DNA of 64,000 bases from Candidatus Bathyarchaeota archaeon (lineage in GTDB: Archaea; Thermoproteota; Bathyarchaeia; Bathyarchaeales; Bathycorpusculaceae). Numbering within the stretch: the first letter of the stretch is position 1; each line of letters begins with the position of its first letter. Both the position numbers and the translations under genes were made by a program. The DNA lies in assembly GCA_963826715.1 (NCBI GenBank), contig CAWGYA010000008.1:128001-192000 (forward strand), read 5' to 3'. This document shows, in pieces, positions 11,766-18,796 of this stretch. The notes below the pieces were generated by a model. That model saw nothing but the letters and a program-made list of their open reading frames with translations. It had not been told where the DNA came from and made no database searches.

Positions 11766-12878
11766 TTAGGTTTTCCAGTTGGGTCCCGCTTTCTTGCCGA
11801 ACAATACCTGAATATGTCCAACCAAGATAATCACCATCCAAATTGAAGAATAAACAAAATAGTAGACGAAAAGCTCCTGAATCTTCAACTCCCTAAAGCC
11901 TAGCTTACGCCCAAATCCATAGAAAACAGCAGCAGTTATGGCAAATCCGGATAAAGAAATCAGCACCACCTTTAGCATGTCAGCTGTAGCCAAGGAAACT
12001 AGAAAAATGGGAAGGGCGATGTTGAATTTAACTGATAAGAATATGGAGAAAAAGAGCAATCCATTATACATCCATAGACTAGGAACTAACGCGCTCAAAA
12101 AAAAGACGGCTACTGAAGGGTAGAGAAAGAAGAGACTTGGTAAAAATACCTGCGGTTTCTTTATGAAGCGCCCAACAAGTTGTTTATACCAGTCCTTGAG
12201 CCAAAGGGCTTGCCCAATCGCCCACCTTCGACGTTGAGTAAACCAGGTACGTAAATCACCATGAACCACGTTTTTGACCTCAACATCCTGAGAATATGCA
12301 AAACGACTATTCTCGAGAAAAGCTCGTGTAGCAATATCTATGTCCTCTGCAACCACTTTGCGAAAACCATGAACTTTCTCGAACATTTCGCGTCGGATAG
12401 CAAACGCGGCACCATTGACAGCCGGGCACTTATGCATAAACCGTGAAGCTATCCATGAACTGATGTTGAATGTTAAATATTCATAATAAGCCATTTTTGA
12501 GAGTAACGATTTTCCTTTGATTACACGTTTTTTGATATCCAACACGTCAACATGCTGCATTTCCATAACAATTTTTCTGAGGTAATCAGGATCGTTAGGG
12601 ATGCCTACATCTGCATCCAGAAAAAGCAAAACTTTCCCAGAAGATAAGCTAACAGTATTGTTTAATGCATTAGCCTTTCCGATGCGCGTCTGATTTACTA
12701 TAAAAGTAACATTTTCTTTTTGAATATGATTAATTTTTTGAGTGAATTCTTCAGTTGGAGCATCAACTGTCACAAAAATTTCTTTAGATACGTTCTGGGA
12801 ACTCAGCTCGTGAAGCATGGCATCTAATTGATCAGATTCTTTATAGACGGGCACGAATATGCTGATATCGATATCCAA
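11766..12878 (-). CDS. GT2-family glycosyltransferase with C-terminal TM helices
   Basis: GKANALN, DAD, AED and QRRRW motifs of processive GT2 enzymes. Confidence 0.9.
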   Translation of the reverse strand: MDIDISIFVPVYKESDQLDAMLHELSSQNVSKEIFVTVDAPTEEFTQKINHIQKENVTFIVNQTRIGKANALNNTVSLSSGKVLLFLDADVGIPNDPDYLRKIVMEMQHVDVLDIKKRVIKGKSLLSKMAYYEYLTFNISSWIASRFMHKCPAVNGAAFAIRREMFEKVHGFRKVVAEDIDIATRAFLENSRFAYSQDVEVKNVVHGDLRTWFTQRRRWAIGQALWLKDWYKQLVGRFIKKPQVFLPSLFFLYPSVAVFFLSALVPSLWMYNGLLFFSIFLSVKFNIALPIFLVSLATADMLKVVLISLSGFAITAAVFYGFGRKLGFRELKIQELFVYYFVYSSIWMVIILVGHIQVLFGKKAGPNWKT

Positions 12879-12999: not shown

Positions 13000-13530
13000 T
13001 TATTGAGACGACAAAGCTTTTTGTAGAGAATCAGCACAGATAGGTCCGACACGGTAGAGAACTTCAGCTTCATGCCCATCAAATTCGAAATCTGCCTCGC
13101 TAAATAGCACACACATCTCAATTTCTCCATCGAGCAAATGTGATAGTTTCACATAATTATTTTTGGAGACTTCATTCGAAGGGTTAATAGTTGCTTCAAA
13201 ATATTTAGCCCCTGTCAGTTTTAACTGATTAAGCAACAAGGTTTTTTGAAGGCCGTGGCCTCGGTAATCTTTGTCCACTACTACTTCCCAGCTGAAAAAA
13301 GTATCAGGCCGCCGAGGCGGAACATAGCCTGATGCAAAACCAATTATTTTGCCACCATCTTGAGCAACTATGCAAGTATCTTGGAAGTCCCTGGCTAAGA
13401 GAAAATATGTGTAGCGAGAGTTTAAGCCAACGTAGGGTCGGTTGGCAACGAGGAGCTTGTAGACTTCTTTTATATCGTCTACCTTTACTTTTCGTATAGA
13501 AAAAGATGAATGAATGTTTGCTTTGGGCAT
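13000..13530 (-). CDS. EctA-like GNAT acetyltransferase (diaminobutyrate acetyltransferase family)
   Basis: LNS.Y.Y.LL...F..TC.VA, GF.SGY.PP.RPDT.F.W, EATI.PSN..S and GHEAE.L.R.GP are EctA family signatures. ATG lies 10 nt downstream of the aminomutase stop. Confidence 0.8.
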   Translation of the reverse strand: MPKANIHSSFSIRKVKVDDIKEVYKLLVANRPYVGLNSRYTYFLLARDFQDTCIVAQDGGKIIGFASGYVPPRRPDTFFSWEVVVDKDYRGHGLQKTLLLNQLKLTGAKYFEATINPSNEVSKNNYVKLSHLLDGEIEMCVLFSEADFEFDGHEAEVLYRVGPICADSLQKALSSQ

Positions 13531-13540
13531 AAGACCACTT

Positions 13541-14872
13541 TTAAGGGGTGGCTTTTTTTCTGCGCTCCAGCCTCTTATTTCCTTGTGGAACAAGTGAGAT
13601 GGTTTTGTCGTGGTTAGCTAAGAGTTTCTCGATACCAATTGGTGCCTTGCGCTCGTCTTCTTCAAGTTTATGCTGCAGAGGGCATTTTTTGCATTCTCTG
13701 TCACACTGGGCGGGCTTATAATCTTCAGGCTCATTATAAGTTGTAATAACACCTTCATAGTTGCGCAACACGGTCTTGTTGTCGGACCAAGAAATAATAT
13801 AATTTGGCATAACAGGAATTTTGCCTCCACCGCCAGGGGCGTCAATAACAAATGTTGGAACAGCAAAACCGCTAGTGTGCCCAATAAGACTTTCCATGAT
13901 TTCTATCCCTTTACCAACGGAAGTGCGGAAATGTGTAAGTCCTTCTGAGAGGTCGCATTGGAAGAGATAATATGGGCGAACACGGTTTTTGACTAGTTTT
14001 TGGTTGAGTTTCTTCATAATTTGGGGGCAATCGTTAACACCTGCCAGCAAAACTGATTGGTTACCAAGCGGAATGCCTGCATCCGCAAGTTTTCGCAGTG
14101 CCTCTTTGGCTGAGGGAGTGAGTTCTCGTGGGTGGTTAAAATGAGTATTTATCCACAACGGGTGATGCTTTTTTAGCATTGCAACAAGTTCGTCGGTTAT
14201 TCGGTAAGGAAGCACAACAGGAGTTCGGGTGCCGATTCGAATTACTTCCACATGATGTATCTTTTGCAGTTCGGTCAATATCCAGTCAAGATAATCGTCG
14301 GGAAGCATAAGTGCGTCTCCGCCCGAGAGTAATACATCTCTTATGTGGCAATTGTTTTTTATGTAGTCTATACCGCTTTGAATTTGCTCTTTAGAGGGGA
14401 TGTATTCGGAGTCGCCGACTTTCCGTTTACGAGTACAATGTCTGCAGTACATGGCACAACGGTTACTGATTAAAAACAGTACTCGATCGGGGTAGCGATG
14501 CGTTATTCCCTTAACGGGACTGTCTTTGTCTTCATGCAACGGATCCTTCATGTCATATGTACAAACTTTTAGCTCCGCCGGGTTAGGAAAAGCTTGTTTG
14601 AAGATGGGATCGTTGCGGAAATTTTCTTTCTCAATAAGTGAAGCATAATAGGGAGTGATGTTTAAGGGAAATTTCTTAACGGTTTCTTCAAGTTCCCGCC
14701 GCTCTTTACTGGAGAACCTTATTCCCATAAAATTTTCAAAAGCTTCTATAGTTCGTATAGAGTTTTTCAGTTGCCACTGATAGTCCTTCCACTCGACAAC
14801 GGAAATTTTGTCGGTTCGCTTGGAGGTGTAGGTTTGGTAGCTCTTTGGGGTTTCAGTTTTCTCAATAATCAG
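13541..14872 (-). CDS. kamA: Lysine 2,3-aminomutase (radical SAM/PLP), AblA/KamA
   Basis: [31 protein letters not shown] (PLP Lys) and LRNYEG motifs. Probable start is CTG at 14872 after GGAGAG; frame open to 14989. Confidence 0.93.
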
Positions 14873-15021
14873 GGTTGTCTCTCTCCGGATTTGTTTTTGG
14901 GTAGATTTTATAGTTATTATATGTTTTTGACAAACTTTCTTTTTGCAAGAAAGCAAACTAAGGGGTTTCTCTATCCAAGGTAGGGACATTAATAAATTCC
15001 AGATCAGGGTATATCAAAGTT

Positions 15022-16050
15022 ATGACTAAAACCAAAGCAATTGGCTTGTTTTCTGGGGGTTTAGACAGCATGCTTGCCACTGAAATAGTGAGACGACAGG
15101 GCATCGAAGTCATAGCTCTTAACGTGAAAACACCCTTTGGTATCCCCAAAAAAGATGGCAGAAGCGAAGCGGAAGTCTCTGCTGAAGAACTTAAAGTTCC
15201 GCTGGTAGTTATCAAGGTAGACACTGAATACATCAGAATGCTGCGCCATCCCAAACATGGCTACGGCAAAAACCTCAACCCCTGCGTAGACTGCAAAATC
15301 TTCATACTAAAAAAAGCCAAACAATACGCCAAAAAAATTGGTGCAGACTTTCTTTTCACAGGCGAAGTGCTCGGTGAACGCCCAATGTCACAGCATGGAC
15401 CTGCACTCAAAACCATAGAATCAGAAGCAGGATTAAAAGGCAAACTGCTCAGACCGTTATCTGCACAGAGACTTTCGGAGACAGAAGCTGAAAAGACTGG
15501 AAAAATCGACAGAACCCAACTTTTATCAATCACGGGAAGATCACGAAAACCACAATTCGAACTTGCAAAGCAATACGGCATATTAGTATATCCATCACCA
15601 GCAGGCGGCTGTCTCTTAACCTGCGAGGAATACTCTAAGAAACTACGTGATTTATTAGAGCATAAGAAACGCGTTTCCGCGGCTGATGTGAACTTACTAA
15701 GGGTCGGCAGACACTTTCGAGTAAGGAAAAATAAGATAATCGTCGGCAGAAATGAGACGGAGAACAAGTTTTTAGCCAACAACAAAGCCAAAGGAGACTT
15801 CAAATTTGAACTTCCAGAGATAGTCGGTCCAGTTTCGATTTTGCAAGGACCCAAAACCAAAAAAGCTATACAAACCGCAGCTCAATTGGCGGCATGTTAT
15901 TCCGATGCTAAAACAGATACAGCCACAGTAAAGTTTGGCAAAGACACCTTTAACCAGACTATATCAGTAGTTATACCTAAACTTGCTGATGCGGATAAAC
16001 TAAGAGTTGGTTATTCTCAGAGTAAAGCTATAAAATCTGCTAAATGTTAA
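15022..16050 (+). CDS. PP-loop tRNA thiouridylase-like protein (ThiI/MnmA-like, DUF814 C-terminus)
   Basis: SGGLDS, NPCVDCK, TGEVLGERPMSQ, PAGGCLLT and GRHFR motifs. Confidence 0.85.
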   Translation: MTKTKAIGLFSGGLDSMLATEIVRRQGIEVIALNVKTPFGIPKKDGRSEAEVSAEELKVPLVVIKVDTEYIRMLRHPKHGYGKNLNPCVDCKIFILKKAKQYAKKIGADFLFTGEVLGERPMSQHGPALKTIESEAGLKGKLLRPLSAQRLSETEAEKTGKIDRTQLLSITGRSRKPQFELAKQYGILVYPSPAGGCLLTCEEYSKKLRDLLEHKKRVSAADVNLLRVGRHFRVRKNKIIVGRNETENKFLANNKAKGDFKFELPEIVGPVSILQGPKTKKAIQTAAQLAACYSDAKTDTATVKFGKDTFNQTISVVIPKLADADKLRVGYSQSKAIKSAKC

Positions 16051-16103
16051 GAAACAAAAAACCTTATCCCATCAATCCACTCTTTTAATGCTGAGGATCA
16101 ATC

Positions 16104-16937
16104 TTGACTATCGAGAGCAACCGAACTTTGGGCGGTTTAGGTGCCTTATTAACAGTTGTCGGTGTATTCAGCAGCGTATTTTCGATAATCCGATTTGCCT
16201 ATCCCAACAATTTAGCGGCTGACATCGCATTTTCAGGGATTTCGGGAGTTGTTGGAGTAATTTCTTTTGTAGGTTTTATTTTGTTCTTGGTTGCCATGTA
16301 CGGATTTTCTAGAGACTACAAAGAGAACAAAATATTCAACTACATCATTTACGGAATCGTAATCACAATAATCACTACCGTTGTGATAGCGGCAATAGGC
16401 TTTGTGTTTATCTTTGCCAACATGGGTGCTATAATTGCGAGTTGGACCACAAACCCCTCACAATCCGACCTTCTGTCTTCTCTTATACCCTACCTTGCAC
16501 CTTTCATAGCAATATTCGGGTTTATCGGGTTGATTAATGTAGTTTTCAATTTGTTAGCATTCAATTTGCTCTCAAACAAATCAGGTGTACCTTTGTTCAG
16601 AAACGGCGCGAGCGTGCTACTATTGGGGGCTCTGGTAACAATTGTAATTGGCGTAGTGCTGGCCGCTTTTGCTGCGGGCACATTAATATCTTTCGAAAAC
16701 ATCGGCATTATTACCCTCCCAGGAGCCTTATTGCAGGACGTAGGATGGCTGCTTCTGGCGCTGGCTTTCTTTAGGGTGAAACCGGCAACCAATCAAACAT
16801 TGCCCCGTTACATTGAAAATCCACCACCAGCGCCTTTTGAGGCAAAAAATTGCCCAAACTGCGGTGCACAAAACCTTCATGACGCAATATATTGCACCAC
16901 ATGCGGAAAAAAAATCCAATCAGAAAACAGCAACTAA
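16104..16937 (+). CDS. DUF996-like membrane protein with C-terminal zinc ribbon
   Basis: Multiple TM helices, IF.Y...G motif, CPNCG...YCTTCGK. Confidence 0.8.
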   Translation: MTIESNRTLGGLGALLTVVGVFSSVFSIIRFAYPNNLAADIAFSGISGVVGVISFVGFILFLVAMYGFSRDYKENKIFNYIIYGIVITIITTVVIAAIGFVFIFANMGAIIASWTTNPSQSDLLSSLIPYLAPFIAIFGFIGLINVVFNLLAFNLLSNKSGVPLFRNGASVLLLGALVTIVIGVVLAAFAAGTLISFENIGIITLPGALLQDVGWLLLALAFFRVKPATNQTLPRYIENPPPAPFEAKNCPNCGAQNLHDAIYCTTCGKKIQSENSN

Positions 16938-16948
16938 AATGATGCAGC

Positions 16949-17518
16949 ATGCTTGAAACTGTCTATTTGCACTTAGAGTTCAAGTCCAAAACTGACGAAT
17001 GGTCAGTTAACCTACCGTTTCTATGTACTAAATGCGGCATATGTTGCAAGTTGGATGATTTTTTGATGGCTGGAAAAATCAAGGCCAATCCAGAAGAGCA
17101 ACCAAGAATTCACGTTGAACTCAAAGAACTTTATGACAAACTGGCTATATTGCTTGATAAGGGCGAAGAAGAATACGATAACTACGTAATGAACACCGCC
17201 TGTCCTTTTTTAAAAGATAAACTCTGTAGCATCTACCAAATACGCCCAGAAGGCTGTCGCCGATTCCCCGACACTCCTTTTGCCCTACTCTCTGAGGATT
17301 GCGAAGCTCTAAACCGTTTTAAGAAACAACGCACCGCCCTAAAACGAGGCAAAACAACAAAAGAAACTTTTTGGAACACAACCGAACCCATAAAATCTGC
17401 GGGGCTTTCCGAAAAGCAATACCTAAGATGCTTTGATAGATTACTCAAAGCGGGAATAACTGAGAATGAAAAAGAACTCTTTGAGATTCTGAATCAGTAC
17501 GACAAAATAAAAAAATAG
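16949..17518 (+). CDS. YkgJ/CxxCxxCC family putative Fe-S protein
   Basis: CTKCGICC, CPFL....CSIY..RP..CR.FP motifs. Confidence 0.85.
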   Translation: MLETVYLHLEFKSKTDEWSVNLPFLCTKCGICCKLDDFLMAGKIKANPEEQPRIHVELKELYDKLAILLDKGEEEYDNYVMNTACPFLKDKLCSIYQIRPEGCRRFPDTPFALLSEDCEALNRFKKQRTALKRGKTTKETFWNTTEPIKSAGLSEKQYLRCFDRLLKAGITENEKELFEILNQYDKIKK

Positions 17519-17520
17519 AT

Positions 17521-17928
17521 TTATTTGAGGAATTTTCTCAGCATTTTCCCAAAGCTAGCCGAAGAAGCCATAAGCTGCTTGAAGGTTCTCAAATGTACAA
17601 ATGAACAATATTTTTGACACCAAGAAATAGCTTCAGGGGTAAAACCTGCAGTTGAAACAAGCATGCCGCCATCTACAGTCGATTTTTCTTTTGCAAGGGC
17701 AACTCTGGAACAGAACTTTTGAACCTCATAAACACCAATAGGTTGTTCACCGGGGTTTGTGCACTCTATTAACAATTTATGTTTCCCTTTTATGAAATCC
17801 ATTTCGGCAATGATGTGCGCTGTTCGGGTATGCAAAACCGTAGAAAAACGCGTATTGTAACCCATGAACCTAAAAAGAGGTTCAACTGTTTCCTCAAACG
17901 TTCGGCCATTTTGCAGATTATAGCTCAA
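17521..17928 (-). CDS. Stand-alone Mrr-like PD-(D/E)xK restriction endonuclease-fold protein
   Basis: GRTFEE.V..LF..MGY, IEC and VST.GFT.EA motifs; catalytic D and K appear degenerate (H, T). Confidence 0.75.
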   Translation of the reverse strand: MSYNLQNGRTFEETVEPLFRFMGYNTRFSTVLHTRTAHIIAEMDFIKGKHKLLIECTNPGEQPIGVYEVQKFCSRVALAKEKSTVDGGMLVSTAGFTPEAISWCQKYCSFVHLRTFKQLMASSASFGKMLRKFLK

Positions 17929-18085
17929 GCCCGTTCTCCTTTTTAGGAGGGAGAAAAATGACTATATTAGCATTATGGAGGAATACCTAAATTTTTAGGG
18001 CAGCGGATAGTAAAAAAAATGAAGTCATACCTTCACAGTGTTCTTGCTATGGATGGAAAACTAATAAGAGACCCAAGGTTCACAA

Positions 18086-18796
18086 CTATTCTTTCTTCAT
18101 CGCTTCCATCTTAAGCTCCTTGGGCATCAACTCAATCGCGTAACGCAAAGCAGTTCTTGGCATAACTTGTCGGTTAGCAACAACATAATCAAAGATTTCC
18201 TTTTGATGCATACGACTTTCCTCTTTGAGGAGCCACCCAATACCCTTCTGCACCATGTCATCCTCATCAAGCAATAACGCATTACAGATTTCCAAAGCAT
18301 CCGAAAGAAAAAGTCCCTTCTTTGCGGGAACAATAAAAGAAACTGCCGAAGCACGCTTCACCCAGCGATTAGAACTTTTAGTCCAACTTTTTACTGCACT
18401 CGCAATTTGGGGGAATTTTTGGATCAAGTCACCAACTGTATGGTTACAGAAGCCATCACATTTTGCCCAATTGTTGATATAACATTCAATCCACATCTTG
18501 AAAACTGCTATATCTTCGGGTATTAGGTAATTCATGTATTTTGGTAGCCAATTGTTTACAATAAAAGCTTCTTCAGTGTAATCTGATTTGAATAACTCCT
18601 CGCATAACTGAAATATATTTTGCTTGTCGAAGGTTTTTATTTGAGACCAATATTTTTTGGCGATTTTTTCAACAGTTGCAGTTTTTACGCCATAGAAGAT
18701 TGCTGATTCCTTGAAAAAGCGCTGAGAGCTCTGCTTAGTTTTTTCATCAGAGTTTGCTATAAGATCTATTCGGATTTGAGTGAGAAGAGATTCCAT
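18086..18796 (-). CDS. DNA alkylation repair protein (AlkD-like HEAT-repeat glycosylase)
   Basis: NNW..CD, W.KRA, D.DDMVQKG.GW.LKE and TALRYAIE motifs. Confidence 0.9.
   Translation of the reverse strand: MESLLTQIRIDLIANSDEKTKQSSQRFFKESAIFYGVKTATVEKIAKKYWSQIKTFDKQNIFQLCEELFKSDYTEEAFIVNNWLPKYMNYLIPEDIAVFKMWIECYINNWAKCDGFCNHTVGDLIQKFPQIASAVKSWTKSSNRWVKRASAVSFIVPAKKGLFLSDALEICNALLLDEDDMVQKGIGWLLKEESRMHQKEIFDYVVANRQVMPRTALRYAIELMPKELKMEAMKKE

Follow-up and report, generated by a model that had tools for sequence, protein, structure and literature searches.

What does an acetyltransferase of the EctA family, known from ectoine synthesis, do directly downstream of a lysine 2,3-aminomutase, in a genome where the customary partners of EctA are not found? 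This question is raised by a locus on the minus strand of the 64,000-nt stretch of DNA analyzed here (hereafter the window), which comes from an uncultured soil archaeon of the class Bathyarchaeia. The locus consists of kamA (ablA), which encodes the aminomutase, and a gene for a small GNAT-family protein (hereafter the GNAT). The gene contexts, genome surveys and family-wide alignments described below suggest that the pair is probably a second route to acetyl-beta-lysine that is mislabeled in databases as ectoine synthesis. We favor, with some reserve, the view that the GNAT is an EctA homolog recruited as a beta-lysine acetyltransferase that replaces AblB, the acetyltransferase of the known AblA/AblB system. 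The features of the locus are as follows.

13541-14872, minus strand: kamA/ablA, lysine 2,3-aminomutase, 443 codons plus stop; the start, CTG at 14872, is placed by homology
13531-13540, minus strand: 10-nt spacer that separates the stop of kamA from the start of the GNAT gene, read from the sequence
13000-13530, minus strand: EctA-family GNAT of the 'G/E type', proposed beta-lysine acetyltransferase, 176 aa; assigned through TIGR02406, PDB matches and AlphaFold2/Foldseek
13426-13434, minus strand: codons for Tyr33-Val34-Gly35 in the alpha1-alpha2 loop, from the alignment with 103 canonical rows and the modeled secondary structure
13285-13287, minus strand: codon for Glu82, directly after Trp81, in strand beta4, from the alignment with 103 canonical rows
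14873-14989, minus strand: open frame 5' of the homology-supported kamA start, either an N-terminal extension or a 5' leader

Identity of the two proteins

The product of kamA can be confidently assigned, from its sequence, to the AblA-type lysine 2,3-aminomutases. It scores 771.2 bits on the NCBIfam model TIGR03820 (lys_2_3_AblA; cut-off 525.4), contains the Radical_SAM and LAM_C domains of Pfam and matches the lysine 2,3-aminomutase of Clostridium subterminale (2a5h) with an E-value of 7.9e-152. In the alignment with 2a5h, KamA retains the CxxxCxxC motif, the lysine of the GGGGK motif and both aspartates of the QCDLS and V(I/V)DAPGG motifs; the residues aligned to D293, D330 and K337 of the clostridial enzyme are all conserved. 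From the structural literature on lysine aminomutases, we take the two aspartates (in QCDLS and VIDAPGG) to hold the epsilon-ammonium group of lysine and the GGGGK lysine to be the one that carries pyridoxal phosphate.

The GNAT consists of a single PF00583 domain, and its sole meaningful NCBIfam match is TIGR02406 (ectoine_EctA; EC 2.3.1.178), on which it scores 127.6 bits against a cut-off of 120.6, a marginal pass by 7 bits. The AblB model, TIGR03827, gives no match to the GNAT at E <= 0.01. The nearest solved relatives are the EctA structures 3d3s, 6sjy and 6sk1 (E about 1e-21), and the same family is recovered when the AlphaFold2 model of the GNAT (predicted local distance difference test score, pLDDT, 89.7) is compared with known structures using Foldseek: ranks 1-10 are all EctA chains (E 4e-16 to 2e-13; TM 0.70-0.88), and the next GNAT appears at 6e-9, seven orders of magnitude worse. 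In the model, helices span residues 17-30 and 36-48, and strand beta4 spans residues 77-85. The family-invariant residues Asp19, Tyr40, Tyr42, Phe79, Trp81, Thr114, Asn119, His153 and Glu156 are all kept.

The kamA stop codon (TAA) occupies positions 13541-13543, the GNAT starts with ATG at 13530 and ends with a stop at 13000-13002, and the 10-nt spacer on the same strand indicates a bicistronic unit. A preliminary description of this DNA had proposed the same order of kamA, a 10-nt gap and a 176-aa GNAT with EctA signatures, in which LDLNS reads VGLNS and WQVAV reads WEVVV while Tyr, Trp and the HxxE motif are retained. The coordinates and the spacer are the same when re-read on the minus strand, the EctA signatures are borne out by the TIGR02406 score, the PDB matches and the fold, and both altered motifs, as well as Tyr40, Trp81 and H153-x-x-E156, are present in the protein.

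At least 380 relatives matched the GNAT, and the best 120 of the 380 are 62-79% identical to it. Among the relatives with names, nearly all bear the name 'L-2,4-diaminobutyric acid acetyltransferase' and stem from Bathyarchaeota metagenome-assembled genomes (MAGs). A search for longer forms of the GNAT returned no KamA-GNAT fusion, which is weak evidence. One 486-aa protein with FtsX/MacB domains (P0287) shows a partial match to the GNAT, with 61% identity; it probably reflects a fusion made in gene calling on a short contig.

Conservation of the kamA-GNAT pair

The kamA-GNAT pair is a real and strongly conserved feature. Each of the 16 loci from the species-representative genome collection has kamA as the direct 5' neighbor of the GNAT gene. 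In addition, 301 Bathyarchaeia genomes were sampled and searched for AblA-type KamA and for EctA-family matches; KamA exceeds the AblA cut-off in nine of these (746-792 bits), with the GNAT directly downstream in all nine. EctA-family matches above the cut-off occur in ten genomes, namely the same nine and G1027, in which kamA adjoins the GNAT but is cut by the contig end. Neither gene is found in the remaining 291 genomes. Some of the named loci may belong to sampled genomes, and the counts of 16 and 10 are therefore not additive. The survey of kamA neighborhoods with ectA-like genes that had been suggested as a check thus shows the pairing to be conserved in every relative examined (16/16 and 10/10), and the possibility that it occurs in no other genome is excluded by the conserved loci.

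The surroundings of the pair are much less constant. ThiI-like and glycosyltransferase family 2 (GT2) genes flank it in 11 of 17 loci and are absent in the other six, which have only the pair in common; in five of these six, the flanks are unrelated housekeeping genes. The ThiI-like and GT2 neighbors were considered as candidates for a third gene of the module and were rejected given their absence in six of the 17 loci; their presence elsewhere is read as synteny among close kin. Within the window's own genus, the pair is present in only 3 of 14 other sampled genomes. The retention of nothing but the pair in six loci, together with its patchy presence in the genus, indicates that kamA and the GNAT gene behave as a self-contained accessory module.

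The association does not extend to all KamA-like proteins. A shorter KamA paralog of about 370 aa, which scores 467-517 bits and thus falls below the AblA cut-off, is present in about 26 of the 301 genomes, and none of the 21 loci of this paralog that were fetched carries an EctA-like GNAT. In two loci from other Bathyarchaeia (L053:308-4068 and L058:347-3164), the shorter paralog (484-517 bits) lies between or beside Ddl-like ATP-grasp ligases, and L058 also encodes a small RimI/PseH-like GNAT. These cassettes resemble the pair in that they combine a KamA-family aminomutase, in L058 with an acetyltransferase as well, and belong to Bathyarchaeia; they differ in having the shorter, sub-cut-off KamA and ligases, whereas the pair in the window is ligase-free and includes the AblA-type KamA.

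Some records among the examined loci and proteins call for comment. In tblastn searches, kamA or the GNAT gene is split over two or three frames in L003, L006, L015, L017 and L018; these splits in MAG loci are probably assembly indel errors rather than signs of pseudogenes. One of the 16 pair loci, L010, comes from a record titled as a MAG of Methanocella sp. (G401). A phylum search centered on G401 returned the same genomes as a search centered on the source genome, so that GTDB places G401 in the phylum of the window; the Methanocella label on this record therefore looks wrong, and the same label on protein P0087 probably is wrong as well. Finally, GNATs of about 164 aa in one Bathyarchaeia family (for example, G1016:C148:4379-4735 and G953:C56:3809-4186) score 44-55 bits on the EctA model, far below the cut-off.

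A distinct branch of the EctA family

When 1.84 billion cluster representatives were scanned in full with HMMER, 1174 matched the GNAT. Only three of these have E-values under 1e-30, and the next relatives do not exceed 44% identity, which shows that the clade is isolated. For the comparison of individual positions, 103 full-length canonical EctA representatives were aligned with 19 rows of the Bathyarchaeia clade and 13 rows of a second group, the members of which are 38-42% identical and include one that is named from an Oligoflexia MAG. Position 82, which follows the invariant Trp81, is Gln in 103 of 103 canonical rows and Glu in all 19 Bathyarchaeia-clade rows and all 13 rows of the second group. 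Position 35 is Asp in 95 canonical rows, Glu in seven and Ile in one, and is Gly in 100% of the rows of both clades. Position 33 is a gap in 102 of the 103 canonical rows and is occupied by an inserted Tyr in both groups, and position 34 is Leu in 100 of the 103 canonical rows and Val in both groups. None of the 103 canonical representatives has the combination of residues that defines the G/E signature. Three long canonical representatives are fusions, two with MarR (P0153 and P0169) and one with a class-III aminotransferase (P0155); such fusions to EctR-like and EctB-like partners support the canonical status of these representatives.

In an unrooted maximum-likelihood tree of 135 rows, the two G/E groups are separated from the rest by a single split, with a Shimodaira-Hasegawa-like approximate likelihood ratio test (SH-aLRT) support of 96 when the signature columns are included and 83 when they are removed; each group on its own is supported at 98-100. 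The phylogeny relative to EctA that had been proposed as a further check thus assigns the GNAT to an EctA subclade of its own, and the motif changes that define this subclade are those pointed out in the preliminary description. With regard to the context of the second group, a metagenome scan gave a single locus, L043, and the viral_contigs scan gave none. In L043, a metagenome contig, a gene for a KamA-family radical-SAM protein overlaps the start of the GNAT gene; this KamA is partial and scores below every equivalog cut-off. A MarR-family regulator is encoded directly 3' of the G/E-type GNAT in this locus (L043:1468-1938).

Ectoine and acetyl-beta-lysine genes elsewhere in the pair-bearing genomes

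The source assembly (2.64 Mb in 8 contigs, 96% complete) and the other genomes with the pair were examined for the genes that would be expected if the GNAT belonged to either of the known pathways. No ectC (ectoine synthase, PF06339) is found in the source genome, nor in any of the nine pair-bearing genomes searched (the source and eight others). The ectC model is silent in all 14 standard control genomes and was therefore run on two genomes of the same phylum, of the Nitrosopumilaceae type, that have canonical ectA-ectB genes; in both, ectC was found beside this cluster. The canonical EctA proteins from the same phylum score 159-182 bits on TIGR02406 and are about 35% identical to the GNAT, and their genes are followed by ectB. 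In the source genome, there is no ectB match above the cut-off, the best EctB-like protein scoring 218 bits against 552. AblB (TIGR03827) is likewise not found in the source genome and does not exceed its cut-off in any of 12 pair genomes (the source, eight sampled and three reached via the named loci); the control is above the cut-off in Bacillus subtilis and Methanosarcina acetivorans. The absence of ectB, ectC and ablB, initially noted for the window, accordingly holds across the genome, for ectB in the sense that no match exceeds the cut-off; the alternative then envisaged, that ectB and ectC reside elsewhere in the genome, was pursued, and ectC was not found and ectB remained below its cut-off.

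The genome encodes LysA, so that lysine supply is possible. Two markers of lysine fermentation were also sought in the source genome: beta-lysine 5,6-aminomutase (PF09043) is not found, a weak blank given that the control is silent, and Kce/BKACE (PF05853) is not found with a positive control.

Relationship to known systems

The pair shares with the AblA/AblB system the AblA-type first enzyme, the order of aminomutase and then GNAT within an operon, and the same expected chemistry. Like AblB, the GNAT is encoded directly beside ablA in one operon. The two acetyltransferases nevertheless differ: the GNAT does not match TIGR03827, has 176 aa compared with the 266 positions of the AblB profile, and comes from the EctA family. 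A divergent ablB homolog has been noted in Methanothrix_A (PMC9128505); it is not of the EctA type.

With the EctA proteins of ectABC(D) clusters (3d3s, 6sjy, 6sk1 and 6sll), the GNAT is homologous, showing about 30-32% identity over the aligned structure and the same fold (TM 0.78-0.88); like them, it presumably uses acetyl-CoA to acetylate a diamino acid at its distal amine. It differs from them in being partnered by KamA, without ectB or ectC, and in having the inserted Tyr33, Val in place of Leu at position 34, Gly in place of Asp/Glu at position 35 and Glu in place of Gln at position 82. Given that both the ectBC context and the pair of Gln and acidic residue are missing, the GNAT should not be filed as an iso-functional EctA despite its passing the cut-off. 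A 2018 review on ectoine states only that EctA has close paralogs in pathways unrelated to ectoine (PMC5924519). In the literature searched, no paper was found that links an EctA-like GNAT to kamA or describes such a pair in Bathyarchaeia.

Proposed pathway and alternatives

The proposed pathway has two steps. KamA/AblA would convert L-lysine to (3S)-beta-lysine, and the GNAT, a neofunctionalized EctA homolog, would acetylate beta-lysine with acetyl-CoA. That beta-lysine is the substrate of the GNAT appears likely from the gene association and the sequence features of both proteins. The target would be the terminal N-epsilon, by analogy with the distal amine acetylated by EctA, and the product would be N-epsilon-acetyl-beta-lysine, the same solute that AblA/AblB makes; on balance, we lean toward this isomer being the product and serving as a stress solute. 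The GNAT would thereby do the job of AblB, to which it is unrelated beyond the GNAT fold. This interpretation, essentially that of the preliminary description, is supported as the best available by the failure to find the ectBC and AblB partners, the conserved pairing and the separate EctA subclade.

The change of substrate might be explained by a three-part switch. EctA holds 2,4-diaminobutyrate by its alpha-amino-acid end and transfers the acetyl group to the distal amine; compared with this substrate, beta-lysine is two carbons longer and its internal amine is displaced by one carbon. In the G/E type, Gly35 takes the place of the acidic residue in the 'L-D/E-x-N-S' loop of EctA, an extra Tyr (Tyr33) lengthens this loop, and a new carboxylate is placed beside the invariant Trp81 (Gln to Glu82). 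Judging from general GNAT architecture, the alpha1-alpha2 loop (residues 33-35) and beta4 (residue 82) presumably line the acceptor site. Together, the three changes could shift the point at which the internal ammonium group is anchored and allow the longer substrate to fit. As to the history of the module, the chances appear evenly balanced that a branch of EctA became a beta-lysine acetyltransferase through this switch and subsequently spread, together with KamA, as a mobile module of two genes to Bathyarchaeia and to one or more bacterial lineages.

Several observations weigh against this interpretation. The GNAT still exceeds the curated equivalog cut-off for EctA, and no structures match it better than those of EctA. 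Apart from the chain ends, the loop with Gly35 is modeled with the lowest confidence (mean pLDDT of 75 over residues 31-40), and contact of positions 35 and 82 with the substrate is presumed from general GNAT architecture. Without the signature columns, support for a single origin of the G/E type drops to 83; being unrooted, the tree shows neither the ancestral state nor the direction of change; and the context in the second lineage is represented by one partial locus, with a KamA below the cut-off. The pair is present in only 10 of the 301 sampled Bathyarchaeia, from habitats that are not obviously saline; with such rarity and such habitats, an osmolyte role is not self-evident.

Among the alternatives, one retains beta-lysine or a close relative as the substrate and changes the product, which could be N-beta-acetyl-beta-lysine, N-epsilon-acetyl-alpha-lysine that is later isomerized by KamA, or an acetylated intermediate processed elsewhere. 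The observations are compatible with more than one regiochemistry and with either order of the steps, the active-site loop appears to be remodeled and not merely enlarged, and known solutes include acetylated diamino acids besides N-epsilon-acetyl-beta-lysine. We nevertheless consider a different product unlikely because the residues that bind free lysine are retained in the AblA-type KamA, the pair has no third conserved gene at its side, and the EctA family acetylates the distal amine of its diamino acid, according to section 5.2.2 of the ectoine review (PMC5924519). A related idea treats the pair as the recognizable core of a longer pathway to a beta-lysine amide or peptide, with the ligase encoded elsewhere. 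The Ddl-like ligases that adjoin the shorter KamA paralog in two other Bathyarchaeia loci are suggestive in this respect, but ATP-grasp genes are missing from the flanks of the pair, both in the window and in the five non-syntenic loci inspected, the loci of the shorter KamA, including those with ligases, lack the EctA-like GNAT (0/21), and the source genome (G000) has a single KamA-family match, which makes this pathway improbable.

The remaining two alternatives deny a functional link between the genes. If the GNAT were a true EctA producing N-gamma-acetyl-2,4-diaminobutyrate, be it as the final product or as a precursor of ectoine made with unrecognized partners, the adjacency to kamA would be meaningless. 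The equivalog score, the EctA fold with most of the family-invariant residues, and the name diaminobutyrate acetyltransferase in the source records are all compatible with such a function. It is made very improbable by the lack of detectable ectC in nine of nine pair genomes and of ectB above the cut-off in the source genome, by the perfect two-way association with AblA-type KamA (10/10 among the 301 genomes) and by the replacement of both Gln82 (103/103 canonical rows) and the acidic residue at position 35 (102/103); moreover, the score is only 7 bits above the cut-off compared with 159-182 bits for canonical EctA from the same phylum. Lysine 2,3-aminomutase also catalyzes the first step of clostridial lysine fermentation, and KamA might thus serve lysine fermentation or catabolism, with the GNAT as an unrelated neighbor. 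This explanation is scarcely credible: PF09043 (with its silent control, a weak point) and PF05853 are not found in the source genome, and the strict co-occurrence with the GNAT would be left unexplained.

The start of kamA and the surroundings of the operon

The preliminary description had kamA extend to position 14872. This placement agrees with the homologs, the starts of which align at this position (ATG in six, TTG in two and CTG in one; 12 loci inspected), but the codon itself is CTG, which is non-canonical, and the frame is open upstream as far as an ATG at 14989. The start at CTG 14872 is thus inferred from the sequence comparison. A Shine-Dalgarno-like sequence, GGAGAGAGA, is located 5' of the CTG at 14878-14886, and an AT-rich, TATA-like stretch lies farther upstream of kamA, at about 14905-14925; these could represent the ribosome-binding site and the promoter. 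In nine of the 11 other loci for which ATG, TTG or CTG starts are shown, stops interrupt the upstream frame, and the segment 14873-14989 is more likely a 5' leader than an N-terminal extension beginning at the ATG at 14989. A CTG start is seen in the window (14870-14872, minus strand) and in L018 (6666-6668), where homologs have ATG or TTG; in L018, a stop closes the upstream frame, which suggests a genuine non-canonical CTG start.

The region 5' of the operon (15022-18796 of the window) encodes a divergently oriented ThiI/NFACT-R_2 protein, a protein with DUF996 and a zinc ribbon, a CxxCxxCC protein, an Mrr-like restriction endonuclease and a DNA alkylation repair protein. Downstream of the operon, at 11766-12878, there is a GT2 glycosyltransferase with a membrane tail.

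Implications

Proteins of the G/E type satisfy the EctA equivalog model and bear the name diaminobutyrate acetyltransferase in public records, yet their genomes lack detectable ectC, which points to an annotation error. As a consequence of such mislabeled ectA matches, surveys that count ectA would overestimate ectoine producers and miss producers of acetyl-beta-lysine. If the proposed function is correct, calls of 'ectoine potential' in anoxic soils and sediments that are based on EctA would be partly wrong. The pair would then represent a clear case of non-orthologous displacement within a solute pathway of two enzymes, in which the change of substrate is marked by a sequence signature that is simple and testable, and the switch would show the minimal set of changes by which EctA-type enzymes can be directed to longer diamino acids. 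The two major pathways for amino acid-derived solutes would share enzyme ancestry, and a stress-solute pathway could be assigned to Bathyarchaeia, an abundant, uncultured class of archaea.

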